Shown one piece after another: positions 3,146 through 57,886 of a DNA stretch of 64,000 bases (within the stretch, counting starts at the first letter, position 1; each line of letters begins with the position of its first letter). Source of the DNA: a virus. Its lineage: Duplodnaviria; Caudoviricetes. The stretch lies in the IMG/VR virus record IMGVR_UViG_3300045747_000505. One strand, given 5' to 3'. Position numbers and translations under genes: made by a program. The notes under the pieces were generated by a model. It had not been told where the DNA came from. It saw only the letters and a list, made by a program, of their open reading frames with translations, and did no database searches.

Positions 3146-3796
3146 ATGGTTCAAGCAAGCAGACGCAAGCACCACTACATTTACAAAATTACGCAGGTTG
3201 ATACCGGCAGATTCTACATTGGGATGCACTCAACAGATAATCTCAACGACGAGTATTTCGGTTCTGGGAAAATCATAACCGCTTCGATTAAGAAGCACGG
3301 CAAAGATAAGTTCATCAAAGAAATTCTTGAGCACCTACCATCCCGCGAAGCACTGAAACTTCGAGAGGAGACTATTGTGAATGCCGAGTTAATCAATGAT
3401 GCCCTTTGTATGAATCTTCAGATCGGAGGTGGCGGCGGTTTTAGTAATGACGCGCACCAACGTCGATGCTCAGAAGTTGGTAAGGCACGCTTCCTTGAAA
3501 AGCTAAAGGACCCAGAGTTTGCTGCAACCTATGCAAAGACCCATAAAATTTCTACACGAAAACGTATTGACGAGGCGTGTGAAGAGTTTGGTTTTTGGCA
3601 CAACGGCTTCGTAGGCAAAAGACATAGCGCCGAATCAAAAGCCAAAATAGGCAAAGGCAATTCATTAGCACAACTTGGTGAGAGAAACTCCCAATTTGGA
3701 ACGAAATGGATGCATTTCGATAAACAAAATGTAAAAGTTAAACCGCACGAAGTGAATGATTTCCTTCAGCGTGGTTTCAACTTTGGACGAACATAG
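3146..3796 (+). CDS. GIY-YIG homing endonuclease (SegB-like)
   Basis: HYIYKITQVDTGRFYIGMHST...YFGSG; lies in tRNA cluster; TAAATA upstream. Confidence 0.9.
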   Translation: MVQASRRKHHYIYKITQVDTGRFYIGMHSTDNLNDEYFGSGKIITASIKKHGKDKFIKEILEHLPSREALKLREETIVNAELINDALCMNLQIGGGGGFSNDAHQRRCSEVGKARFLEKLKDPEFAATYAKTHKISTRKRIDEACEEFGFWHNGFVGKRHSAESKAKIGKGNSLAQLGERNSQFGTKWMHFDKQNVKVKPHEVNDFLQRGFNFGRT

Positions 3797-4331: not shown

Positions 4332-5015
4332 ATGATTCTTGCGGACTTGAAGCCATCGACATCTCGCACGACGTTTATTGAAACGTGGCTTTGTGAAATG
4401 CCAAGTGGTCTTGGCACATTCGAAACTTTCGAGACGCTGGAGTATTCAATCAAGGACTTTCTGAAGTACGGCATCAAGGTTGTCAACGTCAATGGCGTCA
4501 ACAAGATTGATGCTGGCGACAAGGTCTTCTACTGGTTCGAAGCCAACGGGAGCATTCAGCTCGCAACGGAGCTTCATAAAAAATCAGAAGGGCTGGTCGT
4601 CAGTCTTACTGGTAAGAATCCAAAGCTTCGAGGAAGAGCACCATACGCAAGCGAGCTGTACTCTGTCGTGCTAAAGGACTCTGGTAAAAACATTCGACTG
4701 ATGTCTGACACGCAGCTAAGCGACGAAGGTCTTGCTCTTTGGAAGAAGCTCGTTAAGCAGGGCCATAAGGTTTCTGTTTATGACGCAGCCAATCCAGGCA
4801 AATCATTCAAGTCATTTGAGACGCCAGCCGAGCTTGATGCGTTCTTCAAAGATGGCGATACGAATTTCAAGCGTTTTCAATATGTTCTCTCAGAAGAGCT
4901 GCTGAGCTACTGCTCGATGCGAGCAAGCTTTAGACTTCGTTTGCTGAGAGAAACGGTTGGTCATGATTTGACTGACGCACCAAATCCCGTAAGGGTGCCG
5001 TCGAGCTTGGCTTGA
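4332..5015 (+). CDS. GNAT-like phage protein
   Basis: YASELY...LMSDTQLSDEGLALWKKL; late promoter at about 4301. Confidence 0.6.
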   Translation: MILADLKPSTSRTTFIETWLCEMPSGLGTFETFETLEYSIKDFLKYGIKVVNVNGVNKIDAGDKVFYWFEANGSIQLATELHKKSEGLVVSLTGKNPKLRGRAPYASELYSVVLKDSGKNIRLMSDTQLSDEGLALWKKLVKQGHKVSVYDAANPGKSFKSFETPAELDAFFKDGDTNFKRFQYVLSEELLSYCSMRASFRLRLLRETVGHDLTDAPNPVRVPSSLA

Positions 5016-5333: not shown

Positions 5334-5405
5334 TTTCACGTAGCTCAATAGGCAGCAGCACCGCTTAGTATGGCGGGGATGCGGGTTCGAGCCCCGTCGT
5401 GTAAT
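5334..5405 (+). pseudogene. Degenerate tRNA (AGT-like loop)
   Basis: D-arm TAGCTCAATAGGCAGCAGC and GGTTCGAGCCC T-arm; irregular anticodon loop; no CCA. Confidence 0.5.
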
Positions 5406-5423
5406 CGTGGCATTCAATTCCAT

Positions 5424-5501
5424 CTGGGCGTAGTGTAGTCTGGCCAACATCCTCGGTCCGGAACCGATAGATCGCAGGTTCGAATCCTGCCGCCCAGACC
5501 A
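5424..5501 (+). tRNA. trnP: tRNA-Pro (CGG)
   Basis: Loop TCCGGAA, C1:G72, CCA; close paralog of 1238. Confidence 0.93.
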
Positions 5502-5673: not shown

Positions 5674-5711
5674 ATTCAATTGCAACTTGAACATTCAATT
5701 GCAACTTCAAC
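5674..5711. repeat. 19-bp tandem repeat upstream of release factor
   Basis: ATTCAATTGCAACTTGAAC then ATTCAATTGCAACTTCAAC. Confidence 0.8.
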
Positions 5712-5722
5712 TGGAGGACAAC

Positions 5723-6391
5723 ATGAAGTGTATACTTGAAGTGCGCGCCGCGGAAGGCGGCGATGATGCGAAGCTCTTCGCAAAGGATCTTGCTGCGGCC
5801 TACGGTCGCATGTTCAGCCGCTTCGGCTGAAAGCATCGCCTGCTAGATTCTCGTCAAGGCGAGATCTCGTTAGAGGTCAGCGGCGAGGATTTGACAGGCT
5901 TGCGACAAGAGGCTGGTGGTCATCGCATCATGCGGGTTCCACCAACCGAGCGTAAGGGTCGCGTTCACACTTCAACGGTGACGGTCGCCGTGCTCGACGA
6001 GGCGAAGGCCTCCAGCATCGAGTTCAACGACCGTGACTTTCGCGTCGAGTGGTACTCTGGCACCGGTGCTGGCGGACAACACCGCAACAAGCATCAGAAC
6101 TCGTGTCGCATCACGCATCGCTCAGGAGCGGTGGCTACGGCTCAGTGTCGTAGTCGCGAGAACTCTCTGGCCGAGGCGACGATTGCGATACTGGCACGGT
6201 TGAATGGAGCGGAGCAAGCGTCATCAGCGCTGGCACGGTCGCTCGACCGAAAACAACAAACTGGCAGTGGTGAGCGTGGTGATAAAATACGCACCTACCG
6301 CTTTCAAGACAACTCGGTCAAGGACCATCGCACCAACAACAGCGCGGCTCTCGACATTGTCCTCAACGGCAAGTTCGATCTGCTTTGGTAA
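5723..6391 (+). CDS. RF1-like peptide chain release factor lacking domain 1, with in-frame TGA at codon 36
   Basis: GGAGGA RBS; LEVRAAEGGDDAKLF, GGHRIMRVPPTE (PxT), GAGGQHRNK (GGQ), GERGDKIRTY. TGA at 5828-5830, then the frame stays open to 6391. Confidence 0.85.
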
Positions 6392-6397
6392 ATAGCC

Positions 6398-6486
6398 GCG
6401 GGCTTGGCGAAATTGGTAGACGCAACGGGCTTAAACCCCGTGGCCTTTCACGAGGCGTGCGGGTTCGATGCCCGCAGTCCGCACCA
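6398..6486 (+). tRNA. trnL: tRNA-Leu (TAA)
   Basis: ACGGG-CTTAAAC-CCCGT arm, CCA. Confidence 0.94.
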
Positions 6487-7236: not shown

Positions 7237-7872
7237 ATGAAATTACAAGATCTGTTCGAAATGCCGCTATTCATTGACAAGGAATTTCCTACGTTGAAGA
7301 ATTCGCGCATGCTTAGCGCCAACACTATCGAAGATGACTACGATGTCCTTTGGACTGGGAAGCGAAATGAAGCTTCGATCTCTGTGATCATGAAGAAAAA
7401 CAAATCAGTCGCCTTCATCGGTCATTTGGTCGAGCGAACTGACAAAGTCATTTGCCTTCAGCTTGATGGTGGCCTTGAGTTTAAAGATCGCAAGGACTTC
7501 TCCTGGATGCACGACATCAAGGTTGAAGCCAGAAACGCGCTTCAGATTGATGGTATTCAACTTGAAGAAAGCTTTCAAAAGCAAGGCCTGGCGTCGTTAC
7601 TATACCTTGAAATCGTTCGGTACGGCTACGTACTCATTTCAGATACAACACAGTATCGAGGCGGACGCAAACTTTGGGAGTCTCTTGCGAAGAGGCAAGA
7701 AGATCAAGGTGTAAAGATTTATGTTGTCGACAACGGCAAGGTCATCCTTGATGATGCTAATGAGCCGCTTGAGTACGACGGCTCAAACATTCCAGCAGAC
7801 CAAATATGGTCTACCTCAACTAACATTGAAGACAGCAAGAAGCACGTGCTACTTGTGTTGAAATCATTATGA
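7237..7872 (+). CDS. GNAT-family acetyltransferase-like protein
   Basis: FQKQGLASLLY (acetyl-CoA motif A), LISDTTQYRGGRKLW. Confidence 0.7.
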   Translation: MKLQDLFEMPLFIDKEFPTLKNSRMLSANTIEDDYDVLWTGKRNEASISVIMKKNKSVAFIGHLVERTDKVICLQLDGGLEFKDRKDFSWMHDIKVEARNALQIDGIQLEESFQKQGLASLLYLEIVRYGYVLISDTTQYRGGRKLWESLAKRQEDQGVKIYVVDNGKVILDDANEPLEYDGSNIPADQIWSTSTNIEDSKKHVLLVLKSL

Positions 7873-50455: not shown

Positions 50456-50532
50456 TGGTCGTTAGCTCAATCAGGCAGAGCACTCGCCTCCAAAGCGATA
50501 GGTTGTGGGTTCGATTCCTACACGGCCAGCCA
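50456..50532 (+). tRNA. trnW: tRNA-Trp (CCA)
   Basis: Loop CTCCAAA, G73, C27:U43 mismatch. Confidence 0.92.
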
Positions 50533-50835: not shown

Positions 50836-51471
50836 ATGCAAAAGCCACCTAAGACTTACCACTACCTTTATCGAACAACCTGTCTTGTGACAGGCAAGTT
50901 CTATGTTGGTATGCACTCAACAGACGACCTCAACGACGGTTATCTTGGGAGCGGAAAGATTTTAGGTCGCTCTCGCAAAAAGCATGGTGACGAAAAACAT
51001 GTGAAAGAAATTCTTGAACACTGTGCCTCTCGTGAAGCGCTGAAACTTCGTGAGAAGGAAATAGTCTCAGCAGAGATGCTCGCCAACCCGTTGAACATCA
51101 ATTTGAAGATTGGCGGCGAAGGCGGTTGGGATCATATACCGCAGGAGGTAGTTCTATCGAACCTCTCAAAAAGAAATGTTGGTTGGGCGACCTACAACAG
51201 ATCAGAAAAGGGAAGGCTCAAAGCCTCTGAAAACATTCGCAAGATAAATGTTGTTGGTCGAAAGTCTTCTTATGGTTTTCGTGGCAAACAACATACCGAT
51301 GAAACTAAACAAATTCAAAGCCAGCACCATCAAGGTGCTGGCAACTCTCAATACGGAACTTGTTGGGTAACCAAAGACAACAAGTCATCCAAAATCAAAA
51401 AGACTGACCTTGACGAATACCTCGCTAATGGTTTCTCGAAAGGCAGAGTAATTTCTAAAATGGTGATGTAG
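50836..51471 (+). CDS. GIY-YIG homing endonuclease (SegB-like)
   Basis: YLYRTTCLVTGKFYVGMHST...YLGSG; paralog of 3146. Confidence 0.9.
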   Translation: MQKPPKTYHYLYRTTCLVTGKFYVGMHSTDDLNDGYLGSGKILGRSRKKHGDEKHVKEILEHCASREALKLREKEIVSAEMLANPLNINLKIGGEGGWDHIPQEVVLSNLSKRNVGWATYNRSEKGRLKASENIRKINVVGRKSSYGFRGKQHTDETKQIQSQHHQGAGNSQYGTCWVTKDNKSSKIKKTDLDEYLANGFSKGRVISKMVM

Positions 51472-52664: not shown

Positions 52665-53309
52665 ATGAACAAACATCATCTAGTTTATCGCACGACGAAC
52701 CTTCTGAACGGAAGGTATTACATCGGCATCCATTCAACGTCGAACATCGACGATGGGTATCTTGGTAGCGGTCGTAGGATCAAGGCGGAAATCAAGAAGT
52801 ACGGTCAAGAGAATTTCAAGCGTGAGATCCTTGAGTCATACCCAACAAGGCAAGAAGTCTTGAAACGCGAAGCCGAATTGGTCACTGAAGAACTTCGTCA
52901 AGATTCGCTCTGTCTGAATCTTAAGAATGGCGGCGAAGGCGGTTGGGAACATCTGAATGACAACTCTGAGGTCCAACGCGCAAAAGGACGTAAAGGAAAT
53001 GCCAGCATCAAGATCTTGGCAAATGATCCTATTTGGGCCGCATCAAGAAGCGCAGCAATCAGCAATGGTCTTCGCGGAAAGTCTGCTGGGTGGAGTGAAC
53101 AAGCAACAATGGCTTCGCACACCGATGAAGTAAATCAAAAGCGAAGTCGCACAATGAAAGACTTGGCAAGGCAATCAGGCCAAGCAAATTCCCAGTTCGG
53201 AACCTGTTGGGTGACCAACGGGTTTCCAATAAAGATCAAGAAACAAGATCTCGATTCGTATCTGACAAATGGATATGTTCGAGGAAGAACAAAACAATGG
53301 TGCACGTAG
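52665..53309 (+). CDS. GIY-YIG homing endonuclease (SegB-like)
   Basis: LVYRTTNLLNGRYYIGIHST...YLGSG; late promoter. Confidence 0.9.
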   Translation: MNKHHLVYRTTNLLNGRYYIGIHSTSNIDDGYLGSGRRIKAEIKKYGQENFKREILESYPTRQEVLKREAELVTEELRQDSLCLNLKNGGEGGWEHLNDNSEVQRAKGRKGNASIKILANDPIWAASRSAAISNGLRGKSAGWSEQATMASHTDEVNQKRSRTMKDLARQSGQANSQFGTCWVTNGFPIKIKKQDLDSYLTNGYVRGRTKQWCT

Positions 53310-57810: not shown

Positions 57811-57886
57811 GGGTCAGTAGCTCAATTGGCAGAGTTCTGGTCTCCAAAACCAGCGGTTCGGGGTTCGAGTCCCTGCTGGCCCGCCA
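57811..57886 (+). tRNA. trnW: tRNA-Trp (CCA)
   Basis: CTGGT-CTCCAAA-ACCAG arm, G73, CCA. Confidence 0.94.

Follow-up and report, generated by a model that had tools for sequence, protein, structure and literature searches.

An in-frame UGA conserved at a tryptophan codon as a probable readthrough gate in a short RF1-type release-factor gene of huge phages

A textbook example of recoding is release factor 2 (RF2), which regulates its own synthesis through a frameshift at an internal UGA. In prfB, the gene for this factor, synthesis by a +1 frameshift at an early in-frame UGA competes with termination by RF2 (PMC5009743). A design in which the early UGA lies in the same frame as the rest of the gene was once hypothesised for RF2, and according to the same 2016 review no bacterial RF2 gene of this kind and no release factor 1 (RF1) counterpart were known; the one viral case that it describes is an eRF1 gene, from a giant virus of amoebae (PMC5009743). 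A full-text literature search returned no description of a UGA-gated phage release-factor device, and the phage RF1 and RF2 genes catalogued in papers on huge and recoded phages are not said there to contain in-frame stops. The gene described here lies at 5723-6391 on the + strand of a 64,000-nt stretch of DNA, hereafter called the window, from a virus of the Caudoviricetes (IMG/VR record IMGVR_UViG_3300045747_000505). Like prfB, it is a class I release-factor gene with an early in-frame UGA at which synthesis would compete with termination by RF2. Unlike prfB, it would be read through in the zero frame, and there is no Shine-Dalgarno-like GGAGG or CUU before the UGA. The best explanation of the gene as a whole, to which we give a probability of roughly 0.6, is that it encodes an RF1-type factor without domain 1 whose synthesis is gated by programmed UGA-to-Trp readthrough, set by the ratio of tRNA-Trp to RF2.

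The gene begins with an ATG at 5723, preceded by a Shine-Dalgarno (SD) sequence, GGAGG, at 5713..5717, 5 nt ahead of the start codon; AGGAG or GGAG is found ahead of the start codon in most homologues as well. Codons 1-35 (5723..5827) are followed by a TGA at codon 36 (5828..5830, in the context GGC TGA A), by another 186 in-frame codons (codons 37-222, 5831..6388) and by the true terminator, a TAA at 6389..6391. The second part contains PPT in domain 2 (residues 73-75, 5939-5947) and GGQ in domain 3 (residues 117-119, 6071-6079). With Trp at codon 36, the readthrough product is 222 residues long. An earlier note on this DNA, made from its letters alone, had described this layout, all of which was read again in the window sequence, and had proposed that the stop stands in place of a conserved Trp. 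Profile alignment to RF1 of T. maritima (PDB 1rq0/2fvo) bears this out, with codon 36 falling on the conserved Trp of '...GW...', and the outgroups described below have TGG there.

The in-frame TGA was found to be universal in the family. A protein search turned up many related proteins about 222 residues long, together with shorter open reading frame (ORF) calls of 153-184 residues. All seven of the shorter proteins that were looked up had a separate 35-codon 'PCRF' ORF directly upstream, all five that were fetched with their DNA had TGA at codon 36, and two 'full-length' database proteins showing W36 translate only if TGA is read as Trp. The gene has thus been split or truncated by gene callers, or its contigs called in genetic code 4, because of the in-frame TGA. 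Codon 36 was TGA in all of the 81 distinct genes of a first count, which included 80 IMG/VR loci, many of them on contigs of 220-524 kb, and in 106 of 106 after a second scan of metagenomes and of huge-phage genomes of up to 524 kb. The search patterns were back-translated from Trp-containing peptides, so a bias towards TGA should be impossible. A DNA run from a wetland contained an identical contig; the window DNA may have come from that very run. A separate run, a metatranscriptome, contained contigs of a diverged relative (about 88-95% alike) with the TGA unchanged; contigs from an RNA library may include DNA carry-over, and transcription is not proven by them. A sequencing error or a private nonsense mutation, which the earlier note had named as the outcome that would undo its proposal, does not fit a TGA that is universal in the family and also stands in the RNA-library contigs of a relative.

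Both parts of the gene are under purifying selection. In moderately diverged pairs, the ratio of nonsynonymous to synonymous change (dN/dS) was 0.085 before the stop (codons 1-35) and 0.125 after it (codons 37-222). Synonymous sites were near saturation: in 97.5% of all pairs the proportion of synonymous differences (pS) was above 0.6. Synonymous variation was about as expected across most of the gene (observed/expected about 1), and the ratio fell to a minimum of about 0.50 at codons 33-43, so that synonymous constraint is strongest at the stop and immediately 3' of it. The letters conserved around it are GGc TGA a.. ..c CGC CTg aTa, and the portion 3' of the TGA (5831..5845; family consensus A....C CGC CTg aTa, here AAGCATCGCCTGCTA) is a candidate readthrough context. 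The +4 base, directly after the TGA, was A in 82, G in 18 and C in 6 of the genes and T in none; T is found at +4 after about one third of the genuine TGA terminators in G002, a relative of 336 kb that is 98% complete. Codon 35 encoded Gly in 104 of 106 genes. Codon 37 varied (ACT, AAG, GCT, ATT and others), as did the downstream starts that had been called. Pairing of CGCC with GGCG over 4-6 bp, seen by eye in the window, was unsupported by the third-position pattern at codon 46. At the other end of the gene, 100 of the 106 family members terminate with TAA, 4 with TGA and 2 with TAG. Set against the roughly 47-54% TGA in rough gene calls of these phages, this excess of TAA (binomial 2e-23, with genes that are not independent) is in keeping with expression of the gene at times of unreliable termination at UGA. 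The presence of TGA at codon 36 in every one of the 106 genes goes far beyond chance, and the TGA is almost certainly no defect but a recoding site that is functional and programmed.

Phylogenetic analysis placed the genes with TGA at codon 36 in one clade (97/87). Its nearest outgroups, P0123 and P0124, have no interruption and encode the homologous Trp by TGG. P0127, for which a scan with it as the query found one partial locus in IMG/VR, keeps the TGG but has a TGA four codons later. Since the nearest outgroups have TGG and the genes with TGA form one clade, there was one G-to-A change, which was then kept despite the near saturation of synonymous sites. A sister clade of short phage release factors, with about 40% identity, includes genes with TGA (TAG in one case) at codons 45-49, and in the cousins overall an in-frame TGA or TAG falls between codons 41 and 49, at an equivalent place in the protein. 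The sister clade also includes 13 genes in which the first 36-46 codons are in another frame (L229-L245). The two frames join at GGAGG-N3-5-CTT TGA C, or CTT TAG C in two of the genes, which is the cassette of prfB; with a conceptual +1 shift all 13 read open, and in most the CTT is at the codon homologous to W36. A single clade of short phage release factors (100/95), distinct from canonical RF1 and from a small group of short, uninterrupted factors, takes in all of the recoded genes. Recoding at the boundary of helix alpha5 and strand 2 therefore arose several times. Short release factors with 34-37% identity were also seen in three AT-rich, 600-kb uncultured phages of the Al-Shayeb type (L092, L094 and L095; LR756504, LR745206 and LR756502), and these genes contain, elsewhere in the region concerned, one or two in-frame TGAs, which may be sense codons in these genomes.

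The readthrough product matched the Pfam families PCRF (86 bits) and RF-1 (63 bits), both above the cut-offs, and the PCRF match covered only the last 94 positions of the profile (101-194 of 194). Among NCBIfam models the scores were highest for prfA (190-196 bits), followed by prfB (121 bits) and PrfH (38 bits). The matches to the prfA models TIGR00019 and NF001859 begin at profile position 105-114 of 347-361, and the scores of 196 and 190 bits are below the equivalog cut-offs of 400 and 423, with about 105 N-terminal residues, domain 1, absent. Against solved structures, the family profile scored 193 bits with RF1, 117 with RF2 and 45 with PrfH (PDB 9mor). Invariant across the family are E6, A10, E11, G12, G13, D15, F19, D22 and Y27 in the first part and P73-P74-T75, E76, H82, S84 and GGQ in the second, with T83 nearly so. 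The determinants that tell RF1 from RF2 are of the RF1 type when they read QRVPxTE and GR(I/V)HTS (not SPF), and both of these codon-reading motifs, Q-R-V-P-x-T-E and G-R-I/V-H-T-S, are present, the window protein deviating from the first in M70. Judged from its sequence, the predicted product is an RF1-derived short factor without domain 1 and is no prfA orthologue. The resemblance to rescue factors such as PrfH that had been pointed out at the start extends to the shared loss of domain 1 and stops there, the protein being clearly of the RF1 type.

An AlphaFold model of the protein (predicted local distance difference test score, pLDDT, of 88) superposes on ribosome-bound RF1 with a template modelling (TM) score of 0.80-0.86. 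In this model the first strand comprises residues 2-11 and helix alpha5 residues 13-34, and W36 opens the next strand. The first part of the gene therefore encodes the first beta-strand of domain 2 and helix alpha5 with its GGxD tip, and the second part the remainder of domain 2, domain 3 and domain 4. Lacking strand 1 and helix alpha5, which are made up of the first 35 residues, the C-terminal part would not be complete by itself, and the 35-codon part is predicted to be integral to the codon-reading domain. In the GGxD tip, which is the counterpart of the element that reads the first base of the stop codon, the whole family has Asp, whereas the RF1 and RF2 sequences compared have a conserved Glu (GGxE). 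The family also has Pro as the middle residue of PxT. At codon 70 (5930-5932) Met was found in the window protein and in that of L005, a relative of the window that is 93% identical, and Gln (Q70) elsewhere in the family. Residue 70 presumably corresponds to Gln181 of T. thermophilus RF1, the reader of the third base. Given M70 and the GGxD of the family, the stop-codon specificity of the protein may be altered.

TGA otherwise has its standard meaning in these genomes, as had been argued for the window from the many genes that end in it. It is the commonest terminator in the window (44 of 84 rough gene calls), ends 198 of 424 rough calls in G002 and ends 178 of 595 genes (30%) in G003, a complete relative of 524 kb. 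TGA junctions that are coding-like on both sides were sought with a codon-usage score of our own, which can miss weak cases. The screen found no other such junction in the window, and in the whole 336 kb of G002 the release-factor gene was the only one. Coding-like junctions were rarer for TGA than expected from TAA in G003 (4 of 591, against a chance level of 15 of 262). The release-factor junction itself fell below the threshold of the screen in the window and in G003, because the codon usage of the gene is atypical and its first part is short. Genome-wide reassignment of TGA to Trp entails many genes with in-frame TGA and a rarity of TGA as terminator, and neither is seen here. The recoding is specific to the gene.

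Candidates for the decoding of UGA are present among the tRNA genes of these phages. Two tRNA-Trp(CCA) genes are encoded on the + strand of the window. The first (50456..50532) has C27.U43 unpaired at the top of the anticodon stem, which leaves a 4-bp stem, and the second (57811..57886) has the canonical 5-bp stem. In E. coli, UGA readthrough is about 2.5 times higher with a 4-bp anticodon stem, and such stems are found in 8.9% of bacterial tRNA-Trp genes, in an analysis that did not cover phages (PMC13092985, 2026). The sole tRNA-Trp of G002 also has C27.U43 and is encoded 209 nt upstream of the release-factor gene (L009); 4-bp stems were likewise found in L010 (18 nt upstream of the gene), L012 (299 nt upstream), L026 and L071. 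They occurred in 7 of the 19 distinct tRNA-Trp genes sampled and in 93 of 706 other tRNA genes (Fisher p = 0.009). Participation of the phage's own tRNA-Trp, which the earlier note had suggested, gains support from the 4-bp stem in one of the two window genes. No tRNA(UCA) was found in the window, in G002 or in the 81 loci. G003 has 59 tRNAs, none of them a tRNA-Trp(CCA), and among them a tRNA(UCA) of 77 nt with G73 and a Trp-like anticodon arm. It is assigned to Trp because there is no other tRNA-Trp, because of G73 and because of the likeness of the anticodon arm; its global similarity, 0.77 to an Arg tRNA and 0.73-0.75 to Trp tRNAs, is not decisive. In the genome G001 one tRNA-Trp copy is similar to that of E. 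coli and has U11-A24, which we take to be the configuration of the Hirsh UGA suppressor. A Hirsh-type A24 was ruled out for the window, both tRNA-Trp genes of which have C11-G24. It is suggestive that each of the four genomes examined has a tRNA with a feature linked to UGA decoding.

Taken together, these observations suggest the following mechanism. Ribosomes would start at the SD-preceded ATG, make 35 residues and arrive at GGC-UGA-A. Host RF2 would then terminate at codon 36 and release a useless 35-residue peptide, or else tRNA-Trp would read the UGA by a mismatch at the third position, or cognately in those relatives with a UCA anticodon. Insertion of Trp would restore the residue found in RF1, and translation would go on to the TAA. 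The yield of full-length factor would be set by the activity of UGA-decoding tRNA-Trp, partly supplied by the phage, divided by that of RF2, with the conserved 3' context tuning the ratio of readthrough to termination. The purpose that we prefer is the production of more UAA- and UAG-reading factor when the capacity for UGA termination is low or readthrough is high. Such a factor could take over termination at UAA or secure back-up stops. Since the product is of the RF1 type by all of the determinants checked, the loop would probably sense not the factor itself but RF2 capacity or UGA leakiness, which makes it a putative cross-sensor. The earlier note, too, had proposed a sensor role, in which limiting RF2 or the state of translation would be sensed.

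Several points weigh against this mechanism. The family genes are phylogenetically related, so the counts given above are of events that are not independent. Since the product is of the RF1 type, the sensing of the UGA would fall to host RF2, and the feedback is therefore less obvious than in prfB. RNAalifold, run on four segments around the TGA, found no conserved hairpin or stimulatory structure. The gene calls behind the stop usage are rough and come from a script of our own. Features linked to UGA reading are not universal, as 11 of the 19 sampled tRNA-Trp genes have an ordinary 5-bp stem, the 27:43 pair is also absent in about 13% of the other phage tRNAs, and at most loci tRNA genes were sampled only within 6 kb.

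Other explanations of the in-frame stop differ in whether anything is sensed, and by what. A constitutive attenuator, in which a leaky UGA would fix a low level of a potentially toxic, RF3-independent factor with no sensing at all, is rather unlikely. UGA readthrough by tRNA-Trp at a few percent does fix product ratios elsewhere, as for the A1 protein of Q-beta, output from a leaky stop behind a strong SD would be low and robust, and the RNAalifold analysis revealed no regulatory structure. A weak SD or start codon would do likewise, however, and would not be retained in 106 of 106 genes. In addition, the prfB-like cassettes that evolved independently at the homologous codon in the cousins are RF2-dependent in prfB, which points to responsiveness, as do the strong avoidance of TGA at the true terminator and the co-occurrence of special tRNA-Trp genes. 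Responsiveness could take the form of direct negative autoregulation as in prfB, where the factor itself reads UGA and stops its own synthesis when abundant. This is the known rationale of such cassettes (Atkins et al. 2016, PMC5009743), in-frame stops and CUU UGA C cassettes arose repeatedly in the clade of short phage release factors, and the family-specific Asp at the alpha5 tip, the Pro inside PxT and the Met at residue 70 of the window protein can be counted in its favour. Self-sensing of this kind is nevertheless distinctly unlikely for a protein with RF1-type determinants and with scores of 193 bits for RF1 against 117 for RF2 and of 196 for prfA against 121 for prfB; an RF1-type factor that sensed itself should use UAG, which is found in just three cousins.

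A switch of the code late in infection, by which the phage would read UGA as Trp generally, as in code 4, and the release-factor gene would be one of many with UGA, is very improbable. Jade phages do carry RF1 and a suppressor tRNA as a 'code change module' (10.1101/2021.08.26.457843), and G003 has only the tRNA(UCA) for Trp and uses TGA for just 30% of its stops. Yet TGA ends 30-52% of the genes in the window, G002 and G003, there is no excess of coding-like TGA junctions (none besides this gene in the window or in G002, 4 of 591 in G003), and tRNA(UCA) is absent from the window, G002 and the 81 loci. Least credible is a broken or split gene or an artefact, whether a pseudogene, a sequencing error, reinitiation into two polypeptides or a selenocysteine codon. 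Gene callers do report ORFs of 35 and of 153-184 residues, but a universal TGA with dN/dS of about 0.1 on both sides, also present in the metatranscriptome contig of a relative, is not what a defect or an artefact would leave, and there is no conserved start codon past the TGA from which a second polypeptide could be reinitiated. Selenocysteine would call for a selenocysteine insertion sequence (SECIS), and no conserved SECIS-like hairpin was found around the TGA; moreover, the ancestral codon is TGG for Trp, and the tRNA(UCA) of G003, with its 77 nt, does not have the shape of tRNA-Sec. Gating by readthrough, set by the ratio of tRNA-Trp to RF2 activity, is the reading best supported here.

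The source of the window is a huge freshwater phage. The window contains 46 tRNA genes, has almost all of its genes on one strand and a G+C content of 49-62%, and the stretch was found in pond and wetland metagenomes. The DNA runs X3 and X4 covered parts of it only. A blastn search against the INPHARED phages gave matches to tRNA genes only and no near relative. The release-factor gene lies within a tRNA array, with tRNA-Pro(CGG) upstream (5424..5501, + strand) and tRNA-Leu(UAA) (6398..6486, + strand) beginning 7 nt past its stop codon, and tRNA genes were present within 6 kb at 69 of the 81 homologous loci. A tRNA-like gene with a 4-base anticodon (agta) was predicted by ARAGORN at 5334-5406, 316 nt upstream of the release-factor gene, and likewise in L005. 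Six ORFs of similar size (211-227 aa) are scattered among the tRNA genes, at 1451-2089, 3146-3796, 4332-5015, 7237-7872, 50836-51471 and 52665-53309. Directly 5' of the SD is a perfect tandem direct repeat of 19 nt, two copies of ATTCAATTGCAACTT(G/C)AAC (5674..5711, + strand), which may be a promoter, operator or processing signal of the release-factor gene. Its 14-nt core occurs in the window only at 5675-5688 and 5694-5707; as 8 of 100 shuffled sequences had at least two matches to the core, this signal is weak.

Some relatives encode further components of translation and its termination. Transfer-messenger RNA (tmRNA) genes were predicted by ARAGORN in G002 (70496-70867) and G003 (182959-183462), with the tags ANDSQFAIAA and ANDNVFAMAA. 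With these tmRNAs, the release-factor gene belongs to a larger set of phage functions in termination and ribosome rescue. In L002, a relative from a lake phage, a peptide deformylase gene (796-1305), a neighbour with a role in translation maintenance, lies about 1.5 kb upstream of the release-factor gene. Genes for a tRNA(CUA) of the amber-suppressor type were found in G002 (67560-67635), in L261 (630-704; G001) and in the flanks of L057, L075 and L081. The relatives that carry it otherwise use the standard code, and TAG makes up 4-6% of their stops. An RF1-type factor would compete with tRNA(CUA) at UAG. It is conceivable, and put forward here only tentatively, that these elements form a network of stop gates, in which the UGA-gated phage RF1, set by tRNA-Trp variants against host RF2, competes with tRNA(CUA) at UAG gates of translation-maintenance genes, so that the phage measures and rebalances RF1, RF2 and suppressor activity. 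If true, this would be the first readthrough-type control of a bacterial-type release factor, with repeated readthrough and frameshift gates at one structural position.

Comparison with known systems brings out what is particular to this gene. Beyond the difference in frame, it is unlike prfB in that the site is in domain 2 and not in domain 1, and in that the product is of the RF1 type, so that the RF2 sensed is probably not the product; a near-identical version of the prfB cassette (GGAGG, 3-5 nt, CTT TGA C and a body in the +1 frame) is found instead in distant short phage release factors. The readthrough in Q-beta is alike in that a UGA with a +4 base other than U is read in frame, presumably by tRNA-Trp. 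There, both the short and the long product are functional and the stop ends a complete protein, whereas in the window gene a domain is interrupted at a Trp codon, and the short product in all likelihood has no use. Termination-factor genes gated by an in-frame stop are also known for the viral eRF1 of Megavirus and Mimivirus, which involves readthrough and frameshifting (Jeudy et al. 2012, PMC3521657), and for a cellular gene in the readthrough autoregulation of plant eRF1 (PMC5397192). These factors differ in being of the eukaryotic/archaeal type, unrelated in sequence and at work in eukaryotic translation, and they read all three stops, which makes the loop direct. The modules of Jade phages (RF1, suppressor tRNA and TrpRS; 10.1101/2021.08.26.457843) similarly combine a phage RF1-type factor with UGA-reading tRNAs. 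In those phages TGA is sense in many late genes and the module is written in the standard code, while in the window phage TGA is a normal stop and a single gated UGA lies inside the release-factor gene. PrfH (RF-H) and other release factors without domain 1 share with the window protein the lack of this domain and the retention of a codon-recognition-like domain and GGQ. The window protein differs from PrfH in its intact PxT-type motif and in its score with TIGR03072, 38 bits against a cut-off of 166.65, which is below the family threshold. The neighbours read beside the window gene are tRNA genes, in a reading that included no search for an RtcB partner. The UGA readthrough gate is thus a new form of recoding-gated release-factor gene. 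It suggests that huge phages actively monitor the termination capacity of the host, and it gives the phage tRNA-Trp with 4-bp stems and the tRNA(UCA) of standard-code phages a concrete target. With at least 106 distinct genes of the same-frame design and cousins of the frameshift design known from prfB, these phages offer a natural series in which the interconversion of the two kinds of gate can be followed.

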